A stretch of 64,000 bases of DNA from Trichormus sp. ATA11-4-KO1 (lineage in GTDB: Bacteria; Cyanobacteriota; Cyanobacteriia; Cyanobacteriales; Nostocaceae), in the NCBI GenBank assembly GCA_019358915.1, contig JAHHIM010000036.1, positions 160,001 to 224,000 of the forward strand, written 5' to 3'. Positions 21,238-60,468 of the stretch are shown here, one piece after another. A program made the position numbers and the translations under genes. Position 1 is the stretch's first letter; each line of letters opens with the position of its first letter. The notes beneath the pieces are model-generated. The model saw only the letters and a list, made by a program, of their open reading frames with translations, was not told where the DNA came from and ran no database searches.

Positions 21238-21481
21238 TCAATGTCGCTCTTTCTTCTCAAAATATTGCTGATACTCTGCTGCTGCTAAATAATATTCACT
21301 AGCAGGTTTGATTTCTGTGACAATATTTTTATCAAATTTGCCGGACATTTGCAGTTTTGCTTTTGACTGCTGCGCTACTTCTGCCCATGTAGCCGACTGA
21401 AGTCGATTTTACCCCTTTTAGTTGGCGAAATGCTGCCTCGACACTCCAAAAACAGCCAGCACCAAATGTTGCCTTTTCCAT
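21238..21481 (-). pseudogene. msrA: Methionine sulfoxide reductase A pseudogene (internal deletion and frameshifts)
   Basis: N-terminus [33 protein letters not shown] is joined out of frame to C-terminal [36 protein letters not shown]. Confidence 0.88.
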
Positions 21482-32221: not shown

Positions 32222-32337
32222 ATTTTCCTCAGCATACTTGGTATATTTTGAGTTATTTAAAAGTCTGTTAAACGCAGAGGAAAGCGAAGATAAGTGCAGA
32301 GGATAAGCAGAGATTTAAGGAAGACGATATGTCTTTA

Positions 32338-34221
32338 CTATGAGTATTTATGAATTTCTAAATATTTTTCCCAAAAATCTCTATTAGTCAGTTCTGGTAG
32401 AGTATCTCTATATTTTTGCTTTAGTTGAGGATATTTAACTAATATTTCCAAAGACAGAAAGATATTTTTACTCAAGATTTTGAAAAATTTACCTCTAGAA
32501 AAAGTAACAGCAAAGCCTTCCTGATTGACGAGATTATAATACAAAGCTTTTCTAGATCTAAAAACATTAATAGGTCTGTAATTTTGCATGGGAACAACTT
32601 TATATACTTGTTTAGTTAATCTATTGTCTTGATGAAAAAATATAGTAGGTAATAGATGGCCATTTAATATCATAAGTCTGAACCAACGATGAATTGTGTT
32701 TTCTGTTTCAACTAGACTTTCTTTATATTTGCCATATATAAAAGGTAATTCGTGATTTTTGACTGGCTTTTCCCCCATACGCATAATTTCTGAATTTTTC
32801 TCTTCAGGATCAAGTGCTTTCAAATATTCCGGGCCTTTGAGAAAATCAGCAACAGCCTGAAGAACTATATTTGCACTTTTATATCTATAACAAAATGCCT
32901 CTCTCATACTAAATTTAACAAAATACTTGATTGCATCTAGCTTGCTAAAATCATCATTAGTAATAACATTGAAAATTAATTCATTCTTTTTTAAGTAATA
33001 GTTCATCATCGGAGAATATTTATTTTCTAATGCTTCATGCCATACGCATACACCATTTAAAGTAATAATTTTATTATTCAATCTCCTGGGAAATTCCATA
33101 TCATCCATTTTGATAAAAAATGGATATGGTAACTTAGAATTATCTATAATTTGTGTGGGAAAACAAAAGAGCCACCAACCATTGTAAGTAATATATTCTT
33201 CTATTTCGTTGAATAAAATATTTTTTATATCTCTCAAATCCAGATCGGGTTTGAGTCGAATTACTTCTTTGTCCCAAATTGCTCCATTTTCATGCTGAAT
33301 ATACTGATCATCTAACTTCAGCATACTACCACCAAGACATATACTCTCGTCATTAGCCACAGTTTGAAAATTATAAATTCTCTCAAATACTTCTGGCGAT
33401 ATAATTACATCATCATCCATAAATATAATATGAGAAAAATCTGATTTGCGGTTTAAGACCTCAATTATTCCTCTAGTATATCCACCGCTACCACCCGCAT
33501 TTTTGTTACGGATTAAATGTATCCTTGAATTACATATATCCTTGAGAGTTCTACCGTTATCTATAACAAATACTTCAAACTTATCTGCTGTGCTTGGATG
33601 ATTTAGTAAAATTTTTTCTATTAAATTGATATTTTTATATATATAAGCTTCTCTTTTGTAAGTACATATGATAATTGCCATTTTTTTAGTTAATTCTTGG
33701 CGATTATTTATATTTGTCTGAAAATAACCACCTATAAATAAGCAGTTATTTTCTAAAGCCTCTATTTCTAGATAAAGTAATCCTTTATATAAGCTAATAT
33801 CTATATTCTTAAATATACTAACTTCTTCACAATCATTATTAGCAATTAGTTTTTGATCTACTAATCTTTTAAATTGTGTTGCATATTTTATATTTATTAA
33901 ACTTACCTTAAATTTTCCTTTTAAATATAGGTTAATCCCTATTGTTTTCACCTTGGTATATTGTTGCCATTTTTGAATTGAAAAAGAATTAAAATATGTA
34001 TCAAAGTGAATAATTCCCGATTTTTTAAGTTCAACAGTATTCCCTTCGTAATTGAGTACACATTTAGAATTCAATCTCAAGAAAAGTTCTTCTACAGTGC
34101 AAATATCTAAATTTGGTAAAATAATATTTTGCAGTTTAATAGTCGTTTGAGTATTGGTACTATTAAGTATGGGATTTACTAAAAGCTCTGACATTTTTTT
34201 ATCCTTGTTGTAAATATTCAA
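32338..34221 (-). CDS. GlfT2-like galactofuranosyltransferase (GT2)
   Basis: DTYFNSF, NAGGSGGY.RG, FMDDD, YNGWW and PFFIKMDDME motifs; very AT-rich; adjacent to glf. Confidence 0.82.
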   Translation of the reverse strand: MNIYNKDKKMSELLVNPILNSTNTQTTIKLQNIILPNLDICTVEELFLRLNSKCVLNYEGNTVELKKSGIIHFDTYFNSFSIQKWQQYTKVKTIGINLYLKGKFKVSLINIKYATQFKRLVDQKLIANNDCEEVSIFKNIDISLYKGLLYLEIEALENNCLFIGGYFQTNINNRQELTKKMAIIICTYKREAYIYKNINLIEKILLNHPSTADKFEVFVIDNGRTLKDICNSRIHLIRNKNAGGSGGYTRGIIEVLNRKSDFSHIIFMDDDVIISPEVFERIYNFQTVANDESICLGGSMLKLDDQYIQHENGAIWDKEVIRLKPDLDLRDIKNILFNEIEEYITYNGWWLFCFPTQIIDNSKLPYPFFIKMDDMEFPRRLNNKIITLNGVCVWHEALENKYSPMMNYYLKKNELIFNVITNDDFSKLDAIKYFVKFSMREAFCYRYKSANIVLQAVADFLKGPEYLKALDPEEKNSEIMRMGEKPVKNHELPFIYGKYKESLVETENTIHRWFRLMILNGHLLPTIFFHQDNRLTKQVYKVVPMQNYRPINVFRSRKALYYNLVNQEGFAVTFSRGKFFKILSKNIFLSLEILVKYPQLKQKYRDTLPELTNRDFWEKYLEIHKYS

Positions 34222-34229
34222 CTACAATT

Positions 34230-34991
34230 TTAGAGAGAAGTACTAAAAGTATCAGTAGTCATTGTAGTTTTTAGATACTCTTTAACAACTTTTTTGGCAT
34301 TACCAATTAGTTTAATTTTTCCTTTATCCAACCAAATTACCCTCTCACATGAGTTTTGAATAAACTCCAAATCATGAGAAACTACTAAAACTGTCGCGTC
34401 AGCAGTCCAAAACTTTTCAATTCGTTGCTTACACTTATTTCTAAAACTCTCATCTCCTACCGAAAGTACTTCATCTAAAATCAAAATATCTGGTTGTACA
34501 TCAGTGGCGATCGCAAAGCCTAATCGTGCTACCATACCAGATGATAAAACTTTTACTGGGACTAAAGAATAATCCTGTAATTGAGAAAATTCTAGAATTG
34601 ATGGCACTCTGGCAATCATTTGTTGGCGCGAAAACCCCAACATGACTCCATAAAAGATAATGTTATCAATCACTGAAATTTCAGTATCAAAACCAGCACC
34701 TAATTCAATCAATGGGGCAATTTCTCCTCCTACTCGCACTACTCCTGATGTAGGTTGTAAAATCCCACAAATTACTTTCAAAAGTGTAGATTTACCTGAC
34801 CCATTCGCGCCAATAATACCAATTTTTTTACCTGCTTCCACCTGTAAATTAATTTCATCCAATACTAACTTTCTCGTAGGTTGACGATACCTCCCTTCTA
34901 AAAAAGACAATATTGTTTTCTTCAAGTCATAAGAAAACTCTTCTTGTGTTCGTCTCCATAAAGAAACTTGATCTAGGCGTATTATTTCCAT
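34230..34991 (-). CDS. wzt: Polysaccharide ABC transporter ATP-binding protein (Wzt-like)
   Basis: GANGSGKST, SSGMVARLGF and ILDEVLSVGD motifs. Confidence 0.92.
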   Translation of the reverse strand: MEIIRLDQVSLWRRTQEEFSYDLKKTILSFLEGRYRQPTRKLVLDEINLQVEAGKKIGIIGANGSGKSTLLKVICGILQPTSGVVRVGGEIAPLIELGAGFDTEISVIDNIIFYGVMLGFSRQQMIARVPSILEFSQLQDYSLVPVKVLSSGMVARLGFAIATDVQPDILILDEVLSVGDESFRNKCKQRIEKFWTADATVLVVSHDLEFIQNSCERVIWLDKGKIKLIGNAKKVVKEYLKTTMTTDTFSTSL

Positions 34992-35831
34992 TTACAACAA
35001 ATCCATAAATGAATTTCGCCACCAACGAAAACAACTTAATCCTAGTCCCAAAAAAATTACCCCACTTAAAAGTGCATGTGCGATTAAATTAATATCTGGT
35101 GGTGTTCCTGATAATGAAATCTGGCGAATACTTTCAATTACTGGTAGTAATGGATTTAATAATAAAAATGACTTCACCGATTCTGGAACAATTGCTGCTG
35201 GGTAAAAGATAGGACTACTCAACCACAGCATAAATACAATTAATTCATAGAAGTAAGGTAAATCCCTAAAAAATACAAATAAAGCACTTACTAACAGACT
35301 AATACCACTACATACTAAAATTAAACCAATTAAAGGAAATAAAAGTGCTAACACATTGACGAAGCTTCTAGAGTTAATCAGCGTCATAATTGCCAGTAAT
35401 GGCAAAACACCAATTACAAACTGAAATATATTTGCTGCAATTAATGAAATAGGAAAAATACTCACAGGTAAGCAAATTTTATTTAACAAACCACCATTAT
35501 TAACTACACTCCATAAGGCTTGTGTTGTTGATGCTGAAAAGAAATTAATTACTACTAATCCCGTAAATACTGCCAACACATAGTTAACAATCGAATTGTC
35601 ATAATATGCTGCAAATGCAGTCCCAAATATTGCAGTATACACTCCCGTCATTAGTAACGGATTGATCAGTGACCAATACACTCCCAAAAAAGAACCTCGG
35701 TAACGTACCTTTAAATTTCGGGATACCAAAACTTGTAGTAATTCCCAGTAATGCTGTAGTTTTGAATTTTGTAAATCGACTTTTAATGATAGGAGCATAT
35801 TGAAGTATCCGCTAACAAATCTATTAAACAT
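34992..35831 (-). CDS. wzm: Polysaccharide ABC transporter permease (Wzm-like)
   Basis: RNLKVRYRGSFLG..W, FFRDL and PIFYP motifs. Confidence 0.92.
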   Translation of the reverse strand: MFNRFVSGYFNMLLSLKVDLQNSKLQHYWELLQVLVSRNLKVRYRGSFLGVYWSLINPLLMTGVYTAIFGTAFAAYYDNSIVNYVLAVFTGLVVINFFSASTTQALWSVVNNGGLLNKICLPVSIFPISLIAANIFQFVIGVLPLLAIMTLINSRSFVNVLALLFPLIGLILVCSGISLLVSALFVFFRDLPYFYELIVFMLWLSSPIFYPAAIVPESVKSFLLLNPLLPVIESIRQISLSGTPPDINLIAHALLSGVIFLGLGLSCFRWWRNSFMDLL

Positions 35832-38166
35832 TGGCTTTATGATTATTTAAACCACTTTGCCAACCAACGCGAATTCCATCAAAAGCTTGTTGAATATAAT
35901 TGATTAAAGTTGAATTAGGAAGACTATGGGTAAATTTAAGGCGGATAATTCTCAACAAACAGCGATAAATGAGTAATGATGTTAAACGAGCAACTAAAAT
36001 AGGAAAGAAAACTTTCTTAAATCCATGTTTTACAGCAAAATAAGTTGTATTCTTTGCCAAAGAATACCAGCAAGTAAGATGTTTCTGATCAATACGATTG
36101 TGACTAGGTTGAGGATAATGATCTACAGATACATCAGCATAGTGAACTTCATATCCTGCCTGAATTAAACGTAAACAAACATCTGTTTCATCAAGATAGT
36201 AATCAAAAAATTCATCGTAGCCGTTGATTTTTTCTAGTATGTCTTTACGGAAAGATGAATTAGTACCCATTAAACCGTTAAACCAAAAGCCATTTGCTTG
36301 GTTATAATTCGCAGCATCATCAGCACGAATAGCAATGGTTTCGCTGAAAATATTGGTAATTCCCCGATGAAATTGTAAGGGATAACCAGGACGAGTTAAG
36401 TCTCTCACTGCGCCGCCAACTGCTGCACATTTTTCTCCACGTTGTGAATAAATGTGTAGCAATTGTTCTATCCATTCAGATGGCGGAACTGCATCATCAT
36501 CAAAAAAAGCCACAATTGAACCTGTAGCTAATTTGATTCCCATATTACGGGAATAACTAATATTTTTAGGCTCAACCTTGAGAAAATTGAGTTTAAAGCT
36601 GTATTTTTTAGATGCCTTACTGACTATTTCACTTGTCTCCATTGTTGATGAAGCATCGATAATAATTACTTCAAAGTTTTGGTAATTAATTAGTGCAATT
36701 GATTGCAGCGCCTTTTCCAGAAAAATCGGGCGATCGCTTGTACAAATTATGATGGAAACTAAAGGATTTAATGAAGTAGATATTGTTTTTGGCATTTGTG
36801 ATAACTTAATTTTGTGAATTTGCCAATATATCTGCCACATCTGATTGATAGTCTTGAGAACTGACTGAATCAGAACTAAAAAATTCAGAGAAACAGGCAC
36901 GTAGCCATTACCTGTAAAGTAGTAAACTTGTTTTGCTAAATTGAGAGCATAAAGTTCAGGTTTTTCACAAGTAACGAGGGCAATATCAACTGGTTTCTTA
37001 AACCAAGCAACTAACCAGAACCACAGACGACTTGTTAATTTATCAGGGAGATACCAGGGAGTTAGTTTTTGCTCTAACTCCATCTTTTTTAAAACCTGAC
37101 TTTGTGAATCATCTTGATAGATAGTAGATTGCACCAAAACTTTGGCTTGTTTATTAATAATTTCTGCTAAAGATAATTCAGTATAATTAAGATTTCCAGG
37201 CATTTTGCCTTGAATACCATTAATGAAATCTTGAAAACCTGCAATAGAAATTTCTGCGAGAAAGTGTCGCCCTGTAGCTGCGTAATAAACTAGTCGAGGT
37301 AAACTTACAATTACCCTTTTTAATAACAGGTTTGGTCGGTGTTTTTGCCAACAGTAACAAAGATTCCGCTCATCGTAATAATTAATCCAGGGGCGGCATT
37401 TAAAGTCAGGCGAATCATGCCAAATAATTGAATGGGGATTAACAGCAACAATCCAACCAGCCTGTTTGGCTCGTAAGCACCACTCTACATCATCAAAGTG
37501 GAGAAAATAATTTTCAAATAAGCCAATTTGTTGCACAACTTGCCGACGAATTAATAGTGATGCAGCTGCACAAACATCTACACTAACGTAAGATTTACCT
37601 TGTAAAATATCTTCATTGCCAATATTACTTTGGTTGGCAAAATTTATTTTTAAATGTGCTTTGGCATCATTGATAAAGCTACCAATTTCTTGAATAGTAT
37701 GAGGTTCCTTGAGCTTGCGAATTTGAGAACCTACTAAGCCAACTTCATCATGATTTTGTAAAGTTTTAATTAGTGAACTGAGAGCTAGAGGATCTAGATG
37801 TACATCATCATCAAGTAGCCAGATGTAATCGTATTCAAGTTGACTAACAACCTGTAAGCCATAGGAAAAACCGCCAGAACCACCTAAATTACTACCTGTT
37901 TGCAGAACCTTGACATTGGCAAAAGAAAATTTTTCTAAATAAGCTTGAGTACCATCATCAGAAGCATTATCTACAACATAAATATCAATTTTGGTCTGAT
38001 ATAGCTTCAGTTTGCAAATATCTTCCAGTAATGAGCAAATATAGTTTAATTTATTATGAGTAACAATTAAAATAGCAACTTTTATGTTACTCACATAAGA
38101 AATGTGGGTTATTGCCTGTGGTTGAGCTAAAAATCCCAAAAAGTAATTTTTCACTTTTGCCAACAC
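35824..38166 (-). CDS. Two-domain GT2 glycosyltransferase
   Basis: Two GT-A modules (VDNASDD/LLDDD/FDDVEW and IIDASS/FFDDD/LDETD). Confidence 0.9.
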   Translation of the reverse strand: MLAKVKNYFLGFLAQPQAITHISYVSNIKVAILIVTHNKLNYICSLLEDICKLKLYQTKIDIYVVDNASDDGTQAYLEKFSFANVKVLQTGSNLGGSGGFSYGLQVVSQLEYDYIWLLDDDVHLDPLALSSLIKTLQNHDEVGLVGSQIRKLKEPHTIQEIGSFINDAKAHLKINFANQSNIGNEDILQGKSYVSVDVCAAASLLIRRQVVQQIGLFENYFLHFDDVEWCLRAKQAGWIVAVNPHSIIWHDSPDFKCRPWINYYDERNLCYCWQKHRPNLLLKRVIVSLPRLVYYAATGRHFLAEISIAGFQDFINGIQGKMPGNLNYTELSLAEIINKQAKVLVQSTIYQDDSQSQVLKKMELEQKLTPWYLPDKLTSRLWFWLVAWFKKPVDIALVTCEKPELYALNLAKQVYYFTGNGYVPVSLNFLVLIQSVLKTINQMWQIYWQIHKIKLSQMPKTISTSLNPLVSIIICTSDRPIFLEKALQSIALINYQNFEVIIIDASSTMETSEIVSKASKKYSFKLNFLKVEPKNISYSRNMGIKLATGSIVAFFDDDAVPPSEWIEQLLHIYSQRGEKCAAVGGAVRDLTRPGYPLQFHRGITNIFSETIAIRADDAANYNQANGFWFNGLMGTNSSFRKDILEKINGYDEFFDYYLDETDVCLRLIQAGYEVHYADVSVDHYPQPSHNRIDQKHLTCWYSLAKNTTYFAVKHGFKKVFFPILVARLTSLLIYRCLLRIIRLKFTHSLPNSTLINYIQQAFDGIRVGWQSGLNNHKANV

Positions 38167-38445
38167 CCAAAATACTTATTTGACTCAAGCTGATTTTTCA
38201 TAGATATCATGAACTCAAAAGATGCATTATTTAAATGCATAATCAAGTCACATAGTTCAAGAATTTAACTTGTTAAAAGTTTGAACTCGTCTGTCTAAAG
38301 AATGATCAGTTGGAATCAAATAAGGTTATCAGGGTAAATTAGGCTACATCTGATAAACTTTGGGTGGATTATTTTAAGATATATTTACTGTCAAATTGCC
38401 TATAATACAAGCACTTTAGCCATATTTCTGGTTGATTTACATCAA

Positions 38446-40566
38446 TTATTGAATGAGACTAACAATGGCTGCCACTAATTCTTCTGGATTAAAAGGCTTA
38501 GATAAATGTATCTGAAATCCTGCTGCTAATGCTTTTTTTTGGTCATTGTTTCCGGCAAAAGCAGTCAAGGCGATCGCGGGAATTTGTCCACCTTCTTCTG
38601 CCGTCCAACTTCTCAATTGACTAATCAGCATATAGCCGTCCATATTAGGCATACTAATATCACTCACCAATACATCTGGCTTTACCTGTTTGAGAGTTTG
38701 TAAGGCTGCAAATGCTGAAGATACTGCCATCACCTCACATCCTTCTTGTTCTAATACAAAAGCCACAAATTCTCGCGAATCAGCATCGTCATCCACAACT
38801 AAAACTTGCACTCCAGTCAGGGATAAAGATTGGGTAGCTAACAATGAAGCATGATTTTGTGCATTAGTCTTACTTAAACTCTCATTTTGGCTTAGTGGTA
38901 ACTGGACAGTAAATGTTGCTCCTTGATCTTCTCCAGCGCTTTCCGCTTTTACAGTACCACCATGCATTTCCACAATATTACGGACAATTGCCAGTCCCAA
39001 TCCTAATCCACCAAATGTTCTCGTAGAACTGCTATCTGCTTGCCGAAAGTAATCAAACACATAGGGCAAAAACTCGGCGCTAATTCCTTTACCTGTATCG
39101 CTAACCACGATTTGAGCATAGCCATCAGCCTGCTTGACTCGTACTTCTATCTTTCCTCTGTTAGGGGTAAACTTGACAGCATTGGAAAGGAGATTCCAAA
39201 CGACTTGCTGCAAGCGCGCAGAATCACCCATAACCTGCCCGACATGCGGTTCAAATATGGGAATAATTTGCATCGACTTGGCTTCTGCCGCTAACCGCAT
39301 TGTCTCTAGTGCAGGTAAGACTACAGATTCTAAGTTGATACTAGTGGTTTTTAGCGCTAGCTTGCCCTGTAAAATTTTTGATATGTCCAGCAAGTCCTCA
39401 ATCAGTTGAACTTGTAAAGTAGCATTACGCTCAATTGTTGCCAGTGCTTGAGTTGTCTTATCTTGGTCAAACTGGCGGCTTTGCAACAACTTAGACCAGC
39501 CCAAAATTGCGTTCAATGGAGTGCGTAACTCATGGGAAAGTACGGCCAGAAATTGATCTTTAATGCGATTAGCTGTTTCTGCTTTAGCTCGTGCTGCTGT
39601 TTCTAATTCCAGTAGTTGCGCTCGTTCTTGTAATATTTGTTTTTGTTCGTGGATATCCGTACAAGTGCCAAACCATTTAACTACACGATTTTGCTCATCT
39701 TTGAGCGGTAAACCCCGTGCTAGTTGCCAGCGATAGGAACCATCAACAGCACGTTTGAAGCGATATTCAATTTCGTATTCAGTACCGCTTTTTACAGCAT
39801 TTGACCACGCTGCAAAAGCTCTTGGTACATCCTCTGGATGTAATGCGGCTAACCAACCAGAACCCAAAGACTGCTCTAATGTTAGCCCGGTATAATCACA
39901 CCAATTTTGATTAAAATAATCACATTCACCATCGGCATTAGTTGTCCAAACCAGTTGAGGAATGGCTTCAGCTAAGTAACGGTAGCGCTCTTCACTTTGT
40001 CTGAGAATTTCTAAAATGCGCTGGCGCTCAGCAACTTCTTGTTGTAATTGCTCGTTGGTTTTAGTAATTTCATGAGTACGAACAGTAACCAATTCCTCCA
40101 GATGATTTTGATATTGTCTCAGTTCTGCTTCTATCCGTAGCCGCTCAGTTATTTGTGTTTGCAGTTCTTGATTTGCTTGTTCTAGTTGAGCAGGACTGGG
40201 AAGTGCCAGTGCTTTTGGAACTAAAGGCAGAAGTGCCACTGCTGTAATCAAAGATATTGTTGCAGTTCCCGCTTTGACTAATCCCGACAGCCAATAGGTG
40301 GGATGCCAAAGTGTCCAAATTGCCATTAAGTGAGTAGTGCCGCAAGCTACGATAAATGCACTAAACAGCAGAAAAATCCAATAAAAAGGTAAATCTTGCC
40401 GCTTGCGGACAAAATAGAACAGTGTAGCGGGAATGGAGTAATAAGCTATTGCAATTAGTGCATCAGATAGTAAGTGTAGCCAAACTAACTTTGTTTGCCA
40501 TAGATAGCAGTGTCCGTGGGGTATAAATGACCCTGAGCTAAATAGATTAATCCATAATTGTGACAT
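38446..40566 (-). CDS. Hybrid histidine kinase with ETR1-like ethylene-binding domain, PAS, HisKA, HATPase and receiver
   Basis: SDALIAIAYYSIP..LFYF and F.AFIVACGTTH motifs; LSHELRTPL; receiver SDISMP. Confidence 0.9.
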   Translation of the reverse strand: MSQLWINLFSSGSFIPHGHCYLWQTKLVWLHLLSDALIAIAYYSIPATLFYFVRKRQDLPFYWIFLLFSAFIVACGTTHLMAIWTLWHPTYWLSGLVKAGTATISLITAVALLPLVPKALALPSPAQLEQANQELQTQITERLRIEAELRQYQNHLEELVTVRTHEITKTNEQLQQEVAERQRILEILRQSEERYRYLAEAIPQLVWTTNADGECDYFNQNWCDYTGLTLEQSLGSGWLAALHPEDVPRAFAAWSNAVKSGTEYEIEYRFKRAVDGSYRWQLARGLPLKDEQNRVVKWFGTCTDIHEQKQILQERAQLLELETAARAKAETANRIKDQFLAVLSHELRTPLNAILGWSKLLQSRQFDQDKTTQALATIERNATLQVQLIEDLLDISKILQGKLALKTTSINLESVVLPALETMRLAAEAKSMQIIPIFEPHVGQVMGDSARLQQVVWNLLSNAVKFTPNRGKIEVRVKQADGYAQIVVSDTGKGISAEFLPYVFDYFRQADSSSTRTFGGLGLGLAIVRNIVEMHGGTVKAESAGEDQGATFTVQLPLSQNESLSKTNAQNHASLLATQSLSLTGVQVLVVDDDADSREFVAFVLEQEGCEVMAVSSAFAALQTLKQVKPDVLVSDISMPNMDGYMLISQLRSWTAEEGGQIPAIALTAFAGNNDQKKALAAGFQIHLSKPFNPEELVAAIVSLIQ

Positions 40567-42789: not shown

Positions 42790-44385
42790 ATGGCGATTGC
42801 GATCGATTTTGGTACTAGTAACACGGTTATTGCTCGTTGGAATCCCATAACCCAGCAGCCGGAAACCTTGAACATACCTGGTTTATCAATTCAGCAAAGT
42901 CTCAATCCCCCACTGATTCCCAGCCTTGTTTATATAGAAGAAGCCACACAAGGTAAAGTCTTAGTAGGGCAACAAGTGCGCGATCGCGGTCTTGACATCA
43001 AAGGCGAAGCGCGATTTTTTCGCAGCTTCAAACGAGGTATTGGTGCAGATATCCCAGGTTTCTTACCAGAAATAGACGGGCAAGTTTTCACCTTTGAGCA
43101 AGTAGGGCAATTGTTCCTCACTCAAGTAATTGAGCAACTTGCACCCATGCAAGGAGGTTTAGATTCTCTCATCTTAACAGTACCCGTAGATAGCTTTGAA
43201 GCTTATCGTCACTGGTTAGGCAAAGTCTGTCAAGCCCTCCCTGTGGAAAAAGTACGGATGCTAGATGAACCCACAGCCGCCGCTTTAGGTTATGGTTTAG
43301 CAGACCAAGAAATTCTCTTGGTAATTGACTTTGGCGGCGGTACTTTAGATTTATCCCTCGTGCGCTTGGATCAAAGCGTACAAACCACCAAGCCTGTAGG
43401 TTTTCTCCTCAAATGGGGAAATAAATCCCTGGCGGAAAACTCCCAGCAAAAACCAAAAATAGCCCGTGTACTAGCCAAAGCCGGGCAAAATTTAGGCGGT
43501 ACCGATATTGATAATTGGTTAGCAGATTACTTTGCCAAAACTCAAGGACTAGCGGTAAGTCCCTTGACTATCAGATTAGCAGAACGAGTAAAAATTCAGT
43601 TATCGACTCAAAACCAAGCTAGTGAAGTTTATTTTGACGATGAAAACTTTGAAAGCTATGAACTGGAACTCAACCGCGAAGCTTTAGAAAATATCCTCAA
43701 AGAACACGGATTTTTTGCACAACTAGATGAGTCAATGACGAGTCTATTACAGCAAGCGCGACGCCAGGGAATAGAACTTGCAGACATCAACGCCGTTTTA
43801 TTAGTTGGTGGAACTGTGCAATTACCCGCAGTGCAAACATGGGTGAAGCAGTATTTTGAGCCAGAAAAAATCCGTTGTGAACGTCCCTTTGAAGCGATCG
43901 CCCAAGGTGCATTACAGTTAGCCCAAGGCGTGGAAATCAAAGATTTTCTCTACCATAGTTATGGTGTCCGCTATTGGGATCGTCGCAACCAGCGCCACAG
44001 TTGGCATTCCATTATTAAAGCCGGACAAGCCTACCCCATGACTCAGCCAGTGGAATTAGTCTTAGGTGCATCTTTAGAAAATCAACCCAGCATTGAATTA
44101 ATTATGGGGGAATTGGGAGCAGAAACAGGCAGCACCGAAGTTTATTTTGATGGCGATCGCTTGATTACTCGTCGTCTAGAAGCAGGTACAACCAGCGTTA
44201 AACCCCTCAACGATCAAGCAGGTGCAAGAACTATAGCTCAACTGACACCACCAGGATATCCCGGAAGCGATCGCATTAAAATTCTTTTTCAAGTTGATGA
44301 CCAGCGTTTTTTGCGAATCACCGTTGAGGACTTGTTGACTAATGACACGCTTTTAGAAAATCGACTTGTAGCACAGTTGAGTTAG
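42790..44385 (+). CDS. Hsp70 family protein (atypical DnaK-like)
   Basis: AIDFGTSNT, DEPTAAA, DFGGGTLD and LVGG motifs. Confidence 0.92.
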   Translation: MAIAIDFGTSNTVIARWNPITQQPETLNIPGLSIQQSLNPPLIPSLVYIEEATQGKVLVGQQVRDRGLDIKGEARFFRSFKRGIGADIPGFLPEIDGQVFTFEQVGQLFLTQVIEQLAPMQGGLDSLILTVPVDSFEAYRHWLGKVCQALPVEKVRMLDEPTAAALGYGLADQEILLVIDFGGGTLDLSLVRLDQSVQTTKPVGFLLKWGNKSLAENSQQKPKIARVLAKAGQNLGGTDIDNWLADYFAKTQGLAVSPLTIRLAERVKIQLSTQNQASEVYFDDENFESYELELNREALENILKEHGFFAQLDESMTSLLQQARRQGIELADINAVLLVGGTVQLPAVQTWVKQYFEPEKIRCERPFEAIAQGALQLAQGVEIKDFLYHSYGVRYWDRRNQRHSWHSIIKAGQAYPMTQPVELVLGASLENQPSIELIMGELGAETGSTEVYFDGDRLITRRLEAGTTSVKPLNDQAGARTIAQLTPPGYPGSDRIKILFQVDDQRFLRITVEDLLTNDTLLENRLVAQLS

Positions 44386-44406
44386 ATCAGAGACTGGGGA
44401 CTGGGG

Positions 44407-44579
44407 CAGGGCTGATTCGTTCCCTAAAAGGGTTAAAATTGCAAGGGCAAATCCACAATTAAGACCGAAAATTTTGGCATCTTCAGTCCGAAATACCTGA
44501 TTTTTCTTTGCGTCTTTGCGCCTTTGCGTGAGATTATCCTCTTGACAAATCTCCAACACAAGCGAATGAAACAGCCCTG
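44407..44579. mobile_element. 173-bp MITE, copy 1
   Basis: TIRs CAGGGCTGATTCGTTC / GAATGAAACAGCCCTG; exact 10-bp flanking duplication GGGACTGGGG; near-identical to 60296-60468. Confidence 0.92.
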
Positions 44580-50921: not shown

Positions 50922-51263
50922 CTAGAGTGCAGATTGAATCATTTCTGCGTATTGTTTTTTAGGCTTCAAGCCCGCAATCTGTGCTAATGTTTGCTGCTGT
51001 TTCAGTAATACTACTGTAGGGGCACTTCTGACACCAAAATTAATAGCTAGTTCAGGTTCTTCGCTCATATCGAGTTCAACCAAGTGCAATTTACCTGTGT
51101 GAGCATCAGCTATTTGATGTAGTACAGGTTGAAGTGTTTCACAGGAAGGACAGTAGGGAGCCACAAACTTGACAATGATTAGCTGATCAGACTCTTGCAT
51201 CAACCATTCAAAAGCTGCTCGTCCTGTAAAGAAAGTTTGAGCCAGAGAAAAAGTCTCTTGCAT
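50922..51263 (-). CDS. Cytoplasmic thioredoxin (YCPSC), resembling the Trx module of NTRC
   Basis: ESDQLIIVKFVAPYCPSC..L.P.L, SAPTV; strong SD CAGGAG before the ATG at 51263. Confidence 0.88.
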   Translation of the reverse strand: MQETFSLAQTFFTGRAAFEWLMQESDQLIIVKFVAPYCPSCETLQPVLHQIADAHTGKLHLVELDMSEEPELAINFGVRSAPTVVLLKQQQTLAQIAGLKPKKQYAEMIQSAL

Positions 51264-51298
51264 ATTTATCTCCTGATAATTGTGATAAAAAACCCTGT

Positions 51299-52261
51299 TT
51301 AGGCAGCGAAAGTCACGAGCGATCGCTGCTCTGATAACCACCGTTCAGCTTCCAGGGCTGCCATACAACCTGTGCCAGCTGCGGTAATTGCCTGACGATA
51401 AATGTGATCTTGAACGTCTCCAGCCGCCCAAATGCCAGGGATATTGGTGGCTGTACTTTTACCCTGAGTTTTGATGTAGCCCGCTTCATCGAGTTCCAGT
51501 TGCTCCTGAAACAGCTGCGTGTTGGGGGTGTGTCCAATGGCGTAGAATAAACCACTTACGGCTAGCGCAGAAACTGCACCAGTGAGATTGTCTTGAACTT
51601 GGACGCAACGGAGGACGGCATCACCATCCACGCTAATAGGTGAACTATACCAATGGATGTGAATTTGGCTGTGATTGAATATGCGCTCCTGCATGGTCTT
51701 AGAAGCCCGCAGGCGAACGCTACGTACCAGTAAATGAACCTTACGGGCATACTTAGTTAAATATAAAGCTTCTTCCACAGCCGCATCACCGCCACCAACG
51801 ACAGCAATATCTGCATTCGCAAACAAAGGATTTGCCCCATCGCAAATTGCACAGGCGGAGATACCGTTATTCCAAAACTTATCCTCACCCGGCAAATGTA
51901 ATCTTTTGGCAGTTGCTCCCGTACAGATGATGAGAGCGCGAGCCTTAACTTCTAGCAAATCAGCAGAGGCTACAGCAAACGGGTATTGAGTAAAATCCAC
52001 AGCAATCACATCATCGGTGATCAATGTCGCACCCCAGCGCCTTGCCTGCTGGCGCATCTGCTGCATTAACTTTGGCCCTTGAACTCCTTCGGGGAAACCG
52101 GGATAGTTCTCTACCTCAGTGGTGGTCATCAATTGACCTCCGGGTATTCCCCCAGTACTGAAACCTTCAAATACCACGGGACTGAGTTGAGCGCGTCCCG
52201 CATAGATGGCGGCAGTATAACCAGCAGGGCCAGAACCAATAATCACCAGATTCTCGACCAT
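51299..52261 (-). CDS. trxB: NADPH-dependent thioredoxin-disulfide reductase (NTRC-like NTR module)
   Basis: [33 protein letters not shown] and AAGDV.D..YRQA motifs. Confidence 0.95.
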
Positions 52262-52268
52262 GATTAAC

Positions 52269-53120
52269 CTAACCTCCCACGAACCATTGAGTGCCGGTAA
52301 ACAGGTAGTATGCCCCAGTCAGAATTAACGCCAAACTGCCAAAGCGGATAATTCCCTCGGAATGTTTTAACAACTGATTACTTTGTTTAGCCAGTCCCGT
52401 AAATAAACTCGCTAGGAAAATCAGCATAGTATAACCTAGAGCATAGCTAACCATTGTCAGCGTACCCAATACCTGGGAACCTGTTGCTGCGGCCGCCGCC
52501 AGCACTGCAAATAGCACTGGACTAGCACAAGGGGAACTCACCAGGGCAAAAGTCAACCCCACCCCATAAGGCCCAGCCTGAGGGAGATTCACATTCATTT
52601 CGGGTAGAGGCAGCTTTACCACTCCCATCAACCACAGACCCATCACAGCCATAATCAGTCCTACTACTATATTGATATAGCCCCGGTACTCTACCATTAC
52701 GGCTCCGGCAAAAGATGAAACCAAGCCAAACAAACTTAAAATTGTCACTGCTCCCAAGACAAACAAGCCAGCCTTAGCAAAAGCATCCCAACGTGATTTA
52801 ATTTTCAGTGTACCGATGTAACTGAGGTTAACTGGTAAAAGTGCCAAGATACAGGGTGATACACTAGCAAGCACCCCACCGATAAACGCCAAAGGCAACA
52901 AAACAAAGGGATTTGCCGTATTCTGTTGGTCAAACCACTGTTGATAACGGTTTTCGACAATCGAAATCACTCGTTCAATAGGATGACTAATTACAGGCCC
53001 CAGAGTAATTACCAGAATGAGGGAGAGCAATCCCAATCCACCATAGACTAGCCATTTTTTCGAGATTTTAGAGCGCCGGGAAGCTTTATGCTCAGTGGAC
53101 GACTGAGATGTTCGTGTCAT
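52269..53120 (-). CDS. ccdA: CcdA/DsbD-type transmembrane electron transporter
   Basis: Two conserved Pro-Cys motifs (SVSPCIL, SSPCASP); multiple TM helices. Confidence 0.9.
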
Positions 53121-53328
53121 TAAGTTCTCCTTAAGCTATGAAGAGATGGAGTCATTTTATGTCCGTTCCCATACCCGTCATTGCGTTGGCGAACACCACT
53201 GAGATGCTCCATTTCACCTCGCAATAACAAAGGAGAAGGAATATAGCTAATACCAATTCGTCAAAATCCAGCAGATGAATCTGACAAACTTAATTACGCA
53301 TTACGAATTGGTACAAAGCCATCACTCA

Positions 53329-53934
53329 CTAAATACTCGCTAAAGCCGTGTCGAGTACTTTGGTGTAGTCATCCTTGTTCGGATTATTTTTAAAAATTGT
53401 TAAAATTTTGCCAGTAGCCGGGTCAACAATAGCTACAGTGCTTGTTTGGCTCTTGTTAGCTTCCAGAAATTTACTCAGACCTAATTTTGCTGCCCTAGCT
53501 TCCGTTTCTTTCACTGTGGCTTGATCAGTCACATCCAGAACAACAAAATTGACCTTGCCGGAATATTCCTGTTTCAATTGTGACATGGTGGGAGCAATAT
53601 TCTTGCAGCCAGGACACCAGGTAGCAAACACATCCACCACAACTGGTTTACCTTGAAGTTCTTGGGCTAGAGGACCTCCTACAGAGTTGGCTTTAGCAGC
53701 GCAGGGATTTTTAGCAGCGCATGGGTTTTTAGCAGCGCAAGGATTTTTAGCAGCGCATGGGTTTTTAGCAGCGCATGGGTTTTTAGCAGCGCATGGGTTT
53801 GCCTGAGAAACATCAGTTGATGATGGAGCTTGATTTTGAGAAATATTATCTGGGTTTGTTGCGCTGCATGATACTGTCAAAATAAGACCACTCAAACACA
53901 CTAGACTTAACAAAAATTTGCTCGATTTGTACAT
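53329..53934 (-). CDS. Lipoprotein thioredoxin (WCPGC) with six NPCAAK repeats
   Basis: SD GAGGAG before the ATG at 53934; lipobox-like LTVS-C; (NPCAAK)6; FATWCPGC. Confidence 0.88.
   Translation of the reverse strand: MYKSSKFLLSLVCLSGLILTVSCSATNPDNISQNQAPSSTDVSQANPCAAKNPCAAKNPCAAKNPCAAKNPCAAKNPCAAKANSVGGPLAQELQGKPVVVDVFATWCPGCKNIAPTMSQLKQEYSGKVNFVVLDVTDQATVKETEARAAKLGLSKFLEANKSQTSTVAIVDPATGKILTIFKNNPNKDDYTKVLDTALASI
53692..53799 (-). repeat. In-frame 18-bp x6 repeat encoding (NPCAAK)6
   Basis: Directly visible; variation between units is synonymous. Confidence 0.95.
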
Positions 53935-54062
53935 TAGGTTCTTCTCCTCACGTTTAAATAGGATGTTTTTTCCACAATGCACCTAGACGTGCATGTTCCG
54001 TTGGTTTTTCCGAGACGAGAAATTGAAATTGGAACTGTCAATTGTGGAGCATTTGTTTATAA

Positions 54063-54089
54063 GACGAATGAGCCATCAAATTTGGATTT
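54063..54089 (-). promoter_or_regulatory. Candidate ECF-sigma promoter (AAATCC-N17-CGTC), copy 1
   Basis: Conserved with copy 2, including spacing, while the spacer sequence varies. Confidence 0.5.
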
Positions 54090-54178
54090 ATAAATTCAAA
54101 ATGTTTTCTTAGCACTAAGTACAACATTTCATTAATTCGTAGCGAATTCTTTGCGTACCTCTGCGCATCCCTCTGCAC

Positions 54179-54319
54179 ACGACAGTCGCTACAAGTCGGC
54201 AAAGCCTTATGCCTACGGCACGCTACGCGGTAAGCGCAGCTATGCCCGTTAGGGCTTTACGGCAGTTCCTCTTTGGGGAAACCACCAAGACCGGACTGCC
54301 TCACCAACGCGCTGTCTCC
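54179..54319. repeat. Nested small dispersed hairpin repeats
   Basis: The outer element (as at 46015-46060) is interrupted by elements also seen near 40795 and 57108. Confidence 0.7.
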
Positions 54320-54441
54320 CCTTTGTGTTTAAATTTCCACCCTCAATTCGCCACGATTTTACGCAAATCTGTACTAAGTGGCGTTTGCAGCCATAAAAAG
54401 CTAGCTTTACCCCTAAAGATAGGGGCAAAGCCATAATTCAA

Positions 54442-54975
54442 TTAATTGTTTGCTAAAGCGGTTTCGAGTATCTTGGTGTAATCAGCCTTATTGGCATTGT
54501 TTTGGTACAGAGCTAAAATGTTGCCAGTAGCCGGGTCAACAATAGCTACTGTGCTTGTTTTGCTCTTATTAGCCTCTAGGAATTTCCCTAGACCTAATTT
54601 TTCAGCTTTAGCTTGCGTTTCTTTGAGTTTGGCCTTATCAGTTACATCCAGAACGACAAAGTTGACCTTGCCGGAGTATTCCTGTTTCAATTGTGACAGG
54701 GTAGGAGCAATATTCTTGCAGCCAGGACACCAAGTCGCAAATACGTCCACTACGACTGGTTTACCTTGAAGTTCTTGGGCTAGAGGCCCTCCCACAGAAT
54801 TGGCTTTAGCAGCACAAGGATTTTTGGACGCACAAGGATTTGCCTGAGCAAGTTTTGTAATTGATGATTGAGCTTCAGTTGCAGAAATACTAGCTGAGGT
54901 TGTTGCTACCATCGATACTGTAAAAACAAGGCTGCTCAAACAGATGTTGAGCAAGAAATTCCCATGTTTGCGCAT
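54442..54975 (-). CDS. Secreted thioredoxin (WCPGC) with two NPCA(S/A)K repeats, paralogue of 53329-53934
   Basis: Sec-type signal peptide; Trx domain nearly identical to the neighbouring gene. Confidence 0.88.
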   Translation of the reverse strand: MRKHGNFLLNICLSSLVFTVSMVATTSASISATEAQSSITKLAQANPCASKNPCAAKANSVGGPLAQELQGKPVVVDVFATWCPGCKNIAPTLSQLKQEYSGKVNFVVLDVTDKAKLKETQAKAEKLGLGKFLEANKSKTSTVAIVDPATGNILALYQNNANKADYTKILETALANN

Positions 54976-55107
54976 ACAATTTTTCCTGTTTTATAGCTTC
55001 AATTGCAGGACGGATGCTGCCACAATGCCAAATACCAAGTTTTGCGGTTTTTCCCTAAAATAGGGAACTAAAACTGGAACTGTGAATTTTGGAGCATCTG
55101 CTTATAA

Positions 55108-55134
55108 GACGACTGAGCTATCAAAATCGGATTT
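55108..55134 (-). promoter_or_regulatory. Candidate ECF-sigma promoter (AAATCC-N17-CGTC), copy 2
   Basis: Same boxes and spacing as 54063-54089. Confidence 0.5.
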
Positions 55135-55212: not shown

Positions 55213-55635
55213 CTAGTCAATGTCAACCATTGGAGCTCGTTCGCCACGACACCATTGAAAGAAATCCCGAGCGTCTAGTACAAGGGAAATTAATACTGTA
55301 CCAGTTACTTCCCAAGCCCACGCCATCAAGAGACTTGAATCAAGTGATTGATAGTAGAAGACGAACAAGAAAGGAATTGGTGTCCACCAAATTAAATGTG
55401 CCAGCCCCAAGAGCTTGACTAAGCCAAAGCGCAGAGCCAGCCAGCCGCCGAAGATAATGTTTCCCATCTGGCAAATACTAACAGCAAGACCAAATGGGTG
55501 AGAAAGGAAGAATAAGGTAGCTACTCCACTGCACAAAATGAGCCACCAAAGCCAAGCTTGCAGATGTCGCGGAAGTCGGGCCAATTGCCTCACAAACCGA
55601 ACGAACGAGTATTTAGGAGAGGTCATAAAGTACAT
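55213..55635 (-). CDS. Small integral membrane hypothetical protein
   Basis: About 4 TM segments; KLLGLAHLIWWTP and ISLVLD.RD...W.RGER. Confidence 0.7.
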   Translation of the reverse strand: MYFMTSPKYSFVRFVRQLARLPRHLQAWLWWLILCSGVATLFFLSHPFGLAVSICQMGNIIFGGWLALRFGLVKLLGLAHLIWWTPIPFLFVFYYQSLDSSLLMAWAWEVTGTVLISLVLDARDFFQWCRGERAPMVDID

Positions 55636-58819: not shown

Positions 58820-60276
58820 ATATCCAACGTAAGTACAGTCTACCTAATTGTACTCTGCTGTTAGAGGGTTTGAGTGACGCAGCAAAAACTGCACAATATC
58901 AAGAAATGCGCCCAGAACTATCAATATTGGTAAATGCCGAATGCTATATACATGGCTATAATCAGCCCCTAGTGGGAGGGCGAGAATTTTTTGAAAGCTT
59001 GGTAAGAGCGGTGAGTGGCTATGCCCAAGAATTTTTGAGTAATGTGTCTAACCCCCAAGCGCACAGTCAAGAGTCAGAATTAGTGGAGTTACAGAAAATT
59101 GACACTAATCGACACAGGCTGACTGTACATTCGGAAATCACCTCAGAGGGCTTTGAATCTAATCCTAACTATAATAAACCGCCCATTCAAATAGATTTGA
59201 ATACGGTGCAATTATTTGATTTAGTGGAAGCTGTAGACCAGTTTTTTGCTGATACCCAAACCTTACCAGAGTTGTCATTAGAATTACGACCAGTTGCTCG
59301 ACGTTACGGCAGTAATAATCAAACCTTCTTCAAGCAGGCAGTACCGGCGAGTATCGGCGTTTCCAGTGTAGCAGTGGCCGCGATCGCCTTTAGCTTGATT
59401 CCCGCCCCAGAGTTACGTCCACCAGAACCCAAACCAGAGGAGCAGACTACCTCTACAGCACCTAGCAACAAATCTGCTACACCACCAACAACAACACCCC
59501 CAGATTTAGAGACTCCTGCATCAAATTCTGTGGCTGTCGCCAGTCCCACACCGACCCCCACAGCAGAATCAACACCAGTAGTTACAGATTTAGCAGCACT
59601 CTTAAACACAGTTACAGAAATTACAGATCCATCCCAACTACGCGCCCTAAATCGCCAAGTTTATAACCAAATTAATCCAACTTGGGCTAGTCGTTCAACA
59701 CTCCAGCAAGATTTAGTCTATCGTGTGGGTGTAGCGGCAGATGGTGCGATCGTCGGCTATAAAGCGGTAAATAAAGGAGCCAATGAAGCAATAGAGTTAA
59801 CTCCTTTGCCCAAACTGCTTTACAATCCTGCCAACCGTCCGCCGATTTCTAATGAACCAATAGCCCAATTTAAAGTAGTTTTTACCACCCAAGGTGTCCT
59901 GGAAGTTAGCCCTTGGCGAGGATATGCCAGAATACCAGAGGTCATCGGTGCAAAAATCACTGACTCTAACACAGTTAAAACTTTAAACCAAAAACTTTAT
60001 GATGTAGTTCGCGACAATTGGGGTGGTACTCCTAGTTATACAAGCGATTTAAAATATCGGGTAGCAGTAAACAAAGATGGCATGATTGCCGACTATGAAC
60101 CACTTAACCAAGTCGCCTTTGACTATTTTCGAGAAACACCCCTACCAAAGATGTTTCAAGAGATTTATGGTTCCAATGTGGCGGCTCCCAATAACAAAGA
60201 ACCTCTCGCGCATTTTCAAGTAGTCTTCAAACCCAGTGGCGTATTAGAAGTGACTCCTTGGCAAGGGTATAAGTGA
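58816..60276 (+). CDS. DUF4335 family membrane protein
   Basis: RKYSLPNCTL.LEG, one TM helix, Pro/Thr linker, duplicated C-terminal domain; overlaps the DUF3038 stop. Confidence 0.82.
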   Translation: MNIQRKYSLPNCTLLLEGLSDAAKTAQYQEMRPELSILVNAECYIHGYNQPLVGGREFFESLVRAVSGYAQEFLSNVSNPQAHSQESELVELQKIDTNRHRLTVHSEITSEGFESNPNYNKPPIQIDLNTVQLFDLVEAVDQFFADTQTLPELSLELRPVARRYGSNNQTFFKQAVPASIGVSSVAVAAIAFSLIPAPELRPPEPKPEEQTTSTAPSNKSATPPTTTPPDLETPASNSVAVASPTPTPTAESTPVVTDLAALLNTVTEITDPSQLRALNRQVYNQINPTWASRSTLQQDLVYRVGVAADGAIVGYKAVNKGANEAIELTPLPKLLYNPANRPPISNEPIAQFKVVFTTQGVLEVSPWRGYARIPEVIGAKITDSNTVKTLNQKLYDVVRDNWGGTPSYTSDLKYRVAVNKDGMIADYEPLNQVAFDYFRETPLPKMFQEIYGSNVAAPNNKEPLAHFQVVFKPSGVLEVTPWQGYK

Positions 60277-60295
60277 TTGGAGATGGGGGGATGGG

Positions 60296-60468
60296 CAGGG
60301 CTGTTTCATTCCCTAAAAGGGTTAAAATTGCAAGGGCAAATCCACAATTAAGACCGAAAATTTTGGCATCTTCAGTCCGAAATACCTGATTTTTCTTTGC
60401 GTCTTTGCGCCTTTGCGTGAGATTATCCTCTTGACAAATCTCCAACACAAGCGAATGAAACAGCCCTG
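60296..60468. mobile_element. 173-bp MITE, copy 2
   Basis: Perfect 16-bp TIR CAGGGCTGTTTCATTC / GAATGAAACAGCCCTG; flanked by G(n)ATGGG duplications. Confidence 0.92.

Follow-up and report, generated by a model that had tools for sequence, protein, structure and literature searches.

The NTR1/TrxE pair of Anabaena PCC 7120 (alr2204/alr2205) is among the closest described counterparts of the locus analysed here, a block of five genes on the minus strand of Trichormus sp. ATA11-4-KO1 that probably forms a thiol-reducing line for the cell envelope. The block lies in a window of 64,000 nucleotides (contig JAHHIM010000036.1, positions 160,001 to 224,000), to which all coordinates below refer unless another contig or locus is named. 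As described in PMC7242069, the thioredoxin (Trx) Alr2205 is reduced in vitro by the NADPH thioredoxin reductase (NTR) or by NTRC, but not by ferredoxin–thioredoxin reductase (FTR). The target of the pair was left open, NTR and Alr2205 went undetected on blots, and the authors suggested that both genes may be pseudogenes. A review names the pair NTR1/TrxE, with the YCPSC motif, and mentions WCXXC "PDI" neighbours upstream (PMC9025218). The words "ccdA" and "DsbD" do not occur in the accessible text of these two sources (Fig. 4A of the review may draw the gene), where no mention of export or of a regulator of the Anabaena cluster was found either.

On the regulatory side, sigI (all2193) was listed as "role unknown" in 2025 (PMC12282138), and the accessible part of PMC11119718 only lists all2193. 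The ECF19 group of extracytoplasmic function (ECF) sigma factors is described as including cyanobacteria, with an anti-sigma factor of RskA-like type and, in one subgroup, a cytochrome c biogenesis gene at position -2 (PMC7826278); its promoters carry ATC at -35 and CG or TG at -10, according to the supplement of the same source. Since this description fits the locus treated here, part of its gene context may already be catalogued. A literature search, made mostly without subscription papers and supplements, returned no paper joining these genes as one system.

Organization and proposed function of the locus

An earlier note on this DNA, made from the sequence alone, had described five co-oriented genes with their redox motifs, and all five minus-strand open reading frames (ORFs) were recovered. 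In order of transcription, they encode TrxS (54442..54975, 177 residues), a predicted exported thioredoxin with a WCPGC motif and a Sec-type hydrophobic leader; TrxL (53329..53934, 201 residues), a predicted lipoprotein thioredoxin with the same motif and a lipobox-like Cys23 (both from ORF, profile, and hydropathy); CcdA2 (52269..53120, 283 residues, Pfam DsbD_TM), with SPC90, SPC198, and an extra N-terminal helix; an NTR1-type NADPH thioredoxin reductase (51299..52261, TIGR01292), with CAIC and GGGDAA; and a TrxE-type cytoplasmic thioredoxin (50922..51263, 113 residues from the ATG), with YCPSC and no hydrophobic leader. The gaps of 7 bp between ccdA2 and ntr1 and of 35 bp between ntr1 and trxE were likewise found in the ORF coordinates as reported. 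Elsewhere in the genome there are a ccdA adjoining a gene of the ResB family, a gene of the CcsA family, NTRC, the catalytic subunit of FTR, and a number of ordinary thioredoxins, and the five-gene locus is therefore an extra system.

We consider it likely that this locus is an inducible line for thiol reduction and repair in the envelope, under the control of a SigI-like sigma factor. Electrons would pass from NADPH to NTR1 (or NTRC), then to TrxE, CcdA2, and finally TrxS and TrxL, whose task would be to repair cysteines that have been oxidised or modified beyond the cytoplasm. TrxE would serve as a private adaptor for CcdA2, bypassing the light-driven FTR route. A SigI-like ECF sigma factor and an RskA-type anti-sigma factor, both encoded on contig C10, would act on two AATCC...CGTC promoters of the locus and on the sigma gene itself. 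As the most likely trigger, one extracytoplasmic cysteine of the anti-sigma factor would be chemically modified, be it through oxidation of the thiol, by reactive sulfur, or by a thiophilic metal, and the induced thioredoxins could undo this change.

NTR1, TrxE, and CcdA2

NTR1 scores 380 bits on TIGR01292 (cut-off 343), shares 65% identity with the reductase portion of the NTRC encoded in the same genome (contig C55), and bears GGGDAA at position 156, which corresponds to the NADPH motif GxGxxA/G. The thioredoxin-binding motifs GR/KG and FF are missing; the CAIC region is preceded by NNG and followed by ANPLF. TrxE is 39% identical to the thioredoxin domain of NTRC (both identities pairwise). 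As in the published definition of NTR1/TrxE, a non-canonical YCPSC thioredoxin directly follows an NTR, and by motif and gene order the two genes appear orthologous to the Anabaena pair. The earlier remark that no characterised cyanobacterial system with this organization was known does not hold as stated, as the pair and two WCXXC genes upstream of it had already been described (PMC7242069, PMC9025218). Its proposal of an NADPH-fed, FTR-independent route, on the other hand, is supported by the in vitro data reported for the Anabaena YCPSC thioredoxin (PMC7242069).

Of 401 genomes, 7 encode TrxE as a separate protein, in each case at a Trx–ccdA2 locus; all other matches are NTRC-sized frames. 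Among 45 TrxE loci of the genome collection, 42 also hold ccdA2 and an exported thioredoxin; as for the other three, one is a locus whose start lies just 992 bases upstream of trxE, and the remaining two are partial TrxE matches. NTR1 is full length at 19 of the 45 loci, fragmentary at 5, and absent from 21, and the retention of TrxE after the loss of NTR1 is expected if NTRC can also reduce TrxE (PMC7242069). Because TrxE travels with an exported thioredoxin and a CcdA2 that is not linked to ResB, it is likely a dedicated donor to CcdA2, as gene content suggests. CcdA proteins usually rely on the housekeeping TrxA, and a CcdA with a cytoplasmic thioredoxin and a reductase of its own departs from that.

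CcdA2 combines a DsbD-beta core with two PC motifs, its profile matches the solved CcdA structure (PDB 5vkv, E 1e-13), and both catalytic cysteines are invariant in 83 of 83 sequences. It is not the cytochrome maturation copy of the genome, since a second ccdA, about 34% identical to it, adjoins a ResB-family gene on contig C42, and the two fall into separate clades (a quick tree with 40 rows gives a support of 98 for CcdA1 and 88 for CcdA2). Linkage to ResB was found in 30 of 30 CcdA1-type loci versus none of the 98 loci related to CcdA2. CcdA2 accordingly shows neither of the two marks of housekeeping cytochrome maturation, ResB/Ccs1 linkage and membership in the CcdA1 clade; as judged from linkage and phylogeny, it is a second, non-housekeeping CcdA. 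The gene is patchily distributed among relatives, nearly all of which have CcdA1-type matches, and a plasmid search returned a single CcdA2 match, in a Pseudanabaena plasmid.

The predicted exported thioredoxins and the conserved unit

The genes of TrxS and TrxL form a tandem duplication, with 83% DNA identity over 300 nt and a 70-nt upstream block that was also copied. In TrxL, Cys23 closes a hydrophobic stretch (residues 7–25), and homologues show clearer lipoboxes (LISC, VAAC, LTAC); a loose lipobox pattern is present in 19 of 63 exported-Trx homologues. Both proteins have export-type N-termini, in agreement with the export predicted earlier: 59 of the 63 homologues have a hydrophobic N-terminus, compared with 0 of 9 TrxE proteins. 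TrxS and TrxL would therefore act outside the cytoplasm, presumably in the periplasm. Homologues were found in 16 of 61 relatives and in 43 of the 401 genomes sampled across the phylum.

Export could, however, lead to the thylakoid lumen instead, which would count against a role in the envelope. In cyanobacteria, Sec and lipoprotein leaders can direct proteins to this compartment, and the locus would then be a second lumenal reducing line, similar to HCF164/CcdA, for cytochrome or photosystem assembly. Such a function is extremely improbable given that the genome has a housekeeping ccdA–ResB pair and a separate CcsA-family gene, that ccdA2 is patchy while the CcdA1 type is nearly universal among relatives, and that the regulators of the ccdA2 line are envelope-type sensors.

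Synteny of these genes is seen across many cyanobacteria. Fifty-four exported-Trx loci were mapped, including that of the window, and ccdA2 is present in 50 of them, TrxE in 9, an intact NTR1 in 7, and a cupin gene in 15. An RskA-type anti-sigma factor with an ECF sigma factor occurs in 25 of these loci and an OmpR-type regulator/kinase pair in 8, with none holding both. As ccdA2 is so much more frequent than intact NTR1, the conserved core consists of the exported thioredoxin and CcdA2 only, and the window represents the largest form. The description of the cassette as self-contained, hence, applies only to this form (an intact NTR1 is found at 7/54 exported-Trx and 19/45 TrxE loci), and even here the likely regulator lies on another contig; the earlier note missed this regulatory layer. 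All these loci are related, and the exported-Trx and TrxE sets overlap in part, so their counts are neither independent nor additive.

Recurring neighbours at the 45 TrxE loci include a cupin (25), NrtS (12), and a peroxiredoxin-like protein (8). The cupin resembles thiol dioxygenases of the 3-mercaptopropionate/cysteine dioxygenase type (E 9e-18 to 6xb9), and these neighbours point to thiol chemistry. Separately, five loci (L024, L037, L039, L040, and L044) carry one or more VTT/DedA genes and a MerA-like pyridine nucleotide-disulfide reductase after ccdA2 or trxE, three of them without an intact NTR1, and YHS-domain (seleno)proteins together with DM13-like exported proteins recur near Trx–ccdA2 or the sigma pair (L030, L131, P0250, and P0294).

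Predicted promoters and regulators

The duplicated upstream block holds the sequence AATCC-N16/17-CGTC, and both exported Trx genes carry this box as a predicted ECF (SigI/ECF19-like) promoter, with AATCC as -35 and CGTC as -10. The trxS promoter (55105..55134, minus strand) scores 26.7 bits and that of trxL (54060..54089, minus strand) 21.6 bits. In relatives, this box also stands in front of exported Trx and sigma genes, and in the genome studied here it further precedes the ECF sigma/RskA anti-sigma pair on contig C10. With a matrix built from 16 sites, all of them in other genomes, the trxS site ranks first in the 5.97-Mb genome, the trxL site third, and the site upstream of the C10 sigma gene fourth; five sites in the genome reach at least 20 bits, against one in two shuffled genomes. 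No ECF box lies directly before ccdA2 (score 0.9), and the promoter upstream of trxL is likely to drive trxL-ccdA2-ntr1-trxE. Owing to a terminator-like hairpin behind trxS (54402..54433, minus strand), the block probably comprises two transcription units rather than one operon, although this hairpin is weak, as the scan found 3 terminator-like sites versus 4.5 expected in shuffled sequences.

The C10 pair is the only RskA_C anti-sigma system of the genome; the anti-sigma gene is at +1, and its product exceeds the RskA_C cut-off and has one transmembrane helix. In a genome of the same genus (G001), a pair 92–97% identical to it lies 2.4 kb from trxS, and, because this counterpart adjoins the locus, a rearrangement likely separated the two in the genome studied here. 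The RskA-like anti-sigma factor with one helix and the ATC (-35)/CG (-10) promoter both agree with ECF19, a SigK-like group, and the sigma factor passes PRK12519 (275 versus a cut-off of 222). No protein named SigI appears among its best 120 matches, and it is gene order and family that suggest its identity with SigI. We infer that transcription of the locus depends on this sigma factor. If the genes stay silent until induced, the failure to see NTR and Alr2205 on blots would be accounted for.

In loci held out from matrix training, the ECF box was found at 10 of 15 that contain the anti-sigma factor, at 0 of 8 kinase loci, and at 1 of the 17 lacking both regulators, namely the window itself; this count omits ten training loci and those with fewer than 200 upstream bases or no called Trx. 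In the TrxE set, which may include training genomes, the corresponding figures are 14/18, 0/11, and 3/10, from the 39 of 45 loci that had at least 250 upstream bases and a usable Trx start. In other lineages, a histidine kinase/regulator pair replaces the ECF sigma/RskA pair, and these kinase loci own a different, tandem box (9/11 and 6/8 loci, mostly from the discovery set). This second box is absent from ECF loci (0/18 and 0/24), occurs in 5/10 and 0/20 loci with neither regulator, and has a background of 4/1484.

In this genome, no ECF box precedes the genes for MsrA/MsrB or those for peroxiredoxin-like, spondin, DM13, DoxX, or cupin proteins, and the regulon therefore identifies no client. 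One MsrB without the box (L286, G000:C65:106343-106684) bears a KRYFL twin-arginine-like leader and is a possible exported client. Elsewhere, a single sigma gene is followed by two tandem RskA-type anti-sigma genes, both encoding the cysteine discussed below (L150:4134-5825).

Possible sensor cysteines and points against the proposed line

An invariant cysteine, placed by hydropathy on the outer side, is shared by 40 of 40 distinct linked anti-sigma factors, and the same holds for 19 of 19 linked kinases, while the sigma factor has no invariant cysteine column (24/40 and 16/40). An alignment-based model of the outer domain of the anti-sigma factor reached a pLDDT of 64 (a single-sequence fold, with pLDDT 40, was unusable); at E <= 0.001 it matched nothing in the PDB, the weak rows returned being SOD-like beta-sandwiches. 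The predicted complex of this domain with the TrxS domain scored 0.00 and was counted neither way. Thiol sensing by the outer cysteine has, in our estimate, a somewhat less than even chance of being correct. A locus on another contig (L172:3849-6520, G000:C73) encodes a DM13 lipoprotein, a protein with DUF4079, and a paralogous kinase that shares the outer cysteine, with no adjacent regulator gene seen.

Several observations weigh against the proposed line and its control. Regarding the sensor, the anti-sigma cysteine also occurs in 34 of 49 RskA_C rows of a phylum sample, many of them unlinked, is replaced by W, M, S, T, or A in other rows, sits in a predicted beta-strand, and may be structural; moreover, an unlinked kinase paralogue of this genome has the same outer cysteine. 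Concerning the promoter, two of the five top sites in the genome have no downstream gene, and of the 15 held-out ECF loci, 5, each from a distant lineage, have a box that does not reach the threshold. The functions of CcdA2 and the exported thioredoxins are predicted from their genes, as is the electron transfer that would run from TrxE through CcdA2 to the exported thioredoxins. Finally, most exported-Trx loci lack TrxE (9/54 have it), so that CcdA2 must use other donors elsewhere; NTR1 is often broken, one TrxE has lost its first cysteine (YYPSC), and the NTR1/TrxE pair may be decaying.

These last points would also fit NTR1 and TrxE being decaying passengers, with CcdA2 fed in a light-dependent manner by the housekeeping TrxA and FTR. 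The genome does have FTR and TrxA-type genes, and the failure to detect the Anabaena proteins (PMC7242069) is in line with this. However, TrxE stands next to ccdA2 in distant lineages, also after the loss of NTR1; ntr1 and trxE are intact here, and their Anabaena counterparts are active in vitro (PMC7242069), which makes the passenger explanation very unlikely.

An envelope repair line fed by TrxE stays the preferred reading. A more extensive circuit for thiol surveillance in the cyanobacterial envelope can be imagined, in which the RskA-type anti-sigma factor that controls SigI and the unrelated kinase would interchangeably switch on the Trx–CcdA2 line, each through one outer cysteine, and would be reset by the line itself; TrxE would be a dedicated, dark-competent donor, the free counterpart of the NTRC thioredoxin domain, and the NPC repeats described below would be a portable thiol-buffer tag of secreted clients of such Trx–CcdA lines across phyla. 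Taken as a whole, this circuit is rather doubtful.

NPC repeats

The earlier note had made cysteine-rich NPCAAK repeats part of the system. Their presence was confirmed, but they are optional and also occur on secreted proteins of other bacteria. A six-frame scan of the 5.97-Mb genome located six repeats in TrxL (53692..53799, minus strand, 18-bp period), two units in TrxS (54805..54840, minus strand), and none elsewhere, in each case in the linker between the leader and the thioredoxin domain. Copy number ranges from 0 to about 10 among homologues, and, because 27 of 120 lack the repeats altogether, these are not needed for the core function. No description of the NPC repeat was found in the literature. 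It might be linked to MNIO enzymes and bufferin-type metallophores; this was rejected, with 0 DUF692 matches in a genome that is 99.9% complete, and "NPC" occurs 0 times in the accessible main text of two MNIO papers (PMC12452194 and PMC13097082).

A search with the repeat alone retrieved 512 proteins; of the best 120, 88 bear a haem motif and 0 a WCxxC, and cytochromes of the SoxA/TsdA and P460 types occur there alongside proteins with a YHS domain and peptides consisting only of repeats. Among 24 dereplicated metagenome groups of NPC cytochromes, counted only if at least 7 kb long (18 of 42 groups, being smaller, were left out), CcdA and an exported thioredoxin accompany the cytochrome in 7, an ECF sigma factor of another type in 10, and a YeeE/YedE sulfur transporter in 11. 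This suggests that the NPC tag may mark clients or thiol buffers of Trx–CcdA lines. A plasmid search for NPC cytochromes gave none.

The association of NPC-tagged SoxA/TsdA-type cytochromes with the sulfur transporter (11/24), and with CcdA and Trx (7/24), is compatible with the same relay serving sulfur chemistry instead of the repair of damage, as a SoxV/SoxW-like line whose substrates would be small thiols or periplasmic proteins in a persulfidated or S-thiolated state. The thiol-dioxygenase-like cupin of 25/45 TrxE loci, preceded by an ECF box in two loci, fits as well. The cupins of this genome, however, have no ECF box, and neither Sox nor rhodanese genes figure in the neighbour clusters that recur at the cyanobacterial loci, and we regard a sulfur line as unlikely.

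The NPC units could also belong to a metal-defence unit, binding Cu, Ag, or Hg outside the cell and held in the reduced state by the relay. The regular spacing of up to about 10 cysteines, the existence of secreted NPC-only peptides, the MerA-like reductase with a VTT/DedA gene in 5 mapped loci, and the best NCBIfam match of the kinase, a heavy-metal sensor model (247.5, below its cut-off of 292.55), can be cited for it. Since the repeat is absent from 27/120 homologues, no metal exporter recurs among the neighbours of mapped loci, and the genome has no MNIO/DUF692 enzyme that would make a bufferin-type metallophore, metal defence is quite improbable.

Secreted peptides of 73–129 residues, almost entirely made of NPC units, lie near NPC cytochromes in eight loci (L186, L187, L195, L198, L213, L214, L224, and L242); the one checked belongs to no Pfam or NCBIfam family. 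DUF6969 adjoins NPC-tagged SoxA/TsdA-type cytochromes in 20 of the 24 groups (L202:5891-6685 and related loci), and some cyanobacterial YHS proteins carry NPC repeats.

Other features of the window

The trxL–ccdA2 spacer (53121..53328, minus strand) is structured, with two hairpins and a folding energy of -65.4 kcal/mol (z -3.4; none of 200 shuffles folded equally well), and could tune downstream expression. The stretch between trxL and trxS (54131..54440, no strand assigned) contains dispersed short repeats, with 58 blastn matches in the genome, and has no part in the mechanism. A sigma-70 promoter scan was uninformative (9 sites versus 7.7 expected). In a hot-spring metatranscriptome, a fraction of 0.13 of the words matched, with contigs spanning parts of trxS, trxL, ccdA2, and the start of the reductase gene; DNA carry-over being uncontrolled there, this was not counted as evidence of expression or co-transcription.

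Just upstream of trxS, 55213-55635 (minus strand) encodes a membrane protein of 140 residues with no Pfam or NCBIfam match and no ECF box, a homologue of which is also found near the exported Trx genes of locus L038. Further away, msrA lies in two short pieces at about 21244-21475 (minus strand) and is apparently broken, with two intact-looking msrA frames elsewhere. The region 32000-39000, of low GC content (0.29-0.36), contains ABC-2-type export and glycosyl-related ORFs and is probably a polysaccharide island. A near-identical element is repeated at 44353-44559 and 60227-60448, with the same spurious ORF start in both places.

Comparison with known systems

The Anabaena NTR1/TrxE cluster shares with the window the order of an NTR and a YCPSC thioredoxin, the WCXXC Trx-like genes upstream, and an NTRC-like ancestry. 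In Synechocystis, the consecutive tags sll0685-sll0688 comprise a gene annotated as a thioredoxin (PMC12382314), a CcdA-type one annotated as a cytochrome c-type biogenesis protein (PMC3564720), SigI, and its binding partner Sll0688, which interacts with SigI in two-hybrid tests (PMC2779905); sll0686 and sll0687 rise together under ethanol (PMC3564720). The same order of Trx, ccdA, sigma, and anti-sigma genes occurs in several of our mapped loci. No paper was found that treats sll0685-sll0688 as one system or defines the SigI regulon.

EcfF/OsrA from Bradyrhizobium controls bll1027-bll1026 and Msr genes (PMC3420878). Like the system proposed here, it combines an autoregulated ECF sigma factor and a cysteine-dependent anti-sigma factor with a DsbD-core protein and an anchored periplasmic thioredoxin. 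Unlike it, it has a group-16 promoter, OsrA as its anti-sigma factor, and no private NTR/Trx listed, and its regulon includes Msr genes, whereas MsrA/B of the Trichormus genome lack the ECF box. DipZ, a fusion of CcdA and thioredoxin, belongs to a further comparable system. In Mycobacterium, SigK/RskA controls mpt83-dipZ-mpt70 (PMC10540498, PMC7509140), a small regulon of exported proteins and DipZ under an RskA-type anti-sigma factor. However, SigK senses through a cysteine pair in the sigma factor, while the Trichormus sigma factor has no such invariant pair in region 4 and scores below the cut-off of the SigK model (112 versus 226), the lone outer cysteine being in the anti-sigma factor.

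To the known CcdA–Trx stress systems, the locus would add an NTR/Trx donor of its own, a pair of sensors that can stand in for each other, and the NPC tag, a cysteine module found widely on secreted proteins. If the proposed line is correct, it would answer both what SigI controls (PMC12282138) and what NTR1/TrxE reduces (PMC7242069), predicting a promoter sequence, induction through loss of the anti-sigma factor, and CcdA2 as the partner; the envelope of a photosynthetic cell would thereby gain reducing power independent of ferredoxin. By its gene families, the locus belongs with NTR1/TrxE and CcdA, and its sigma system is not SigK proper.

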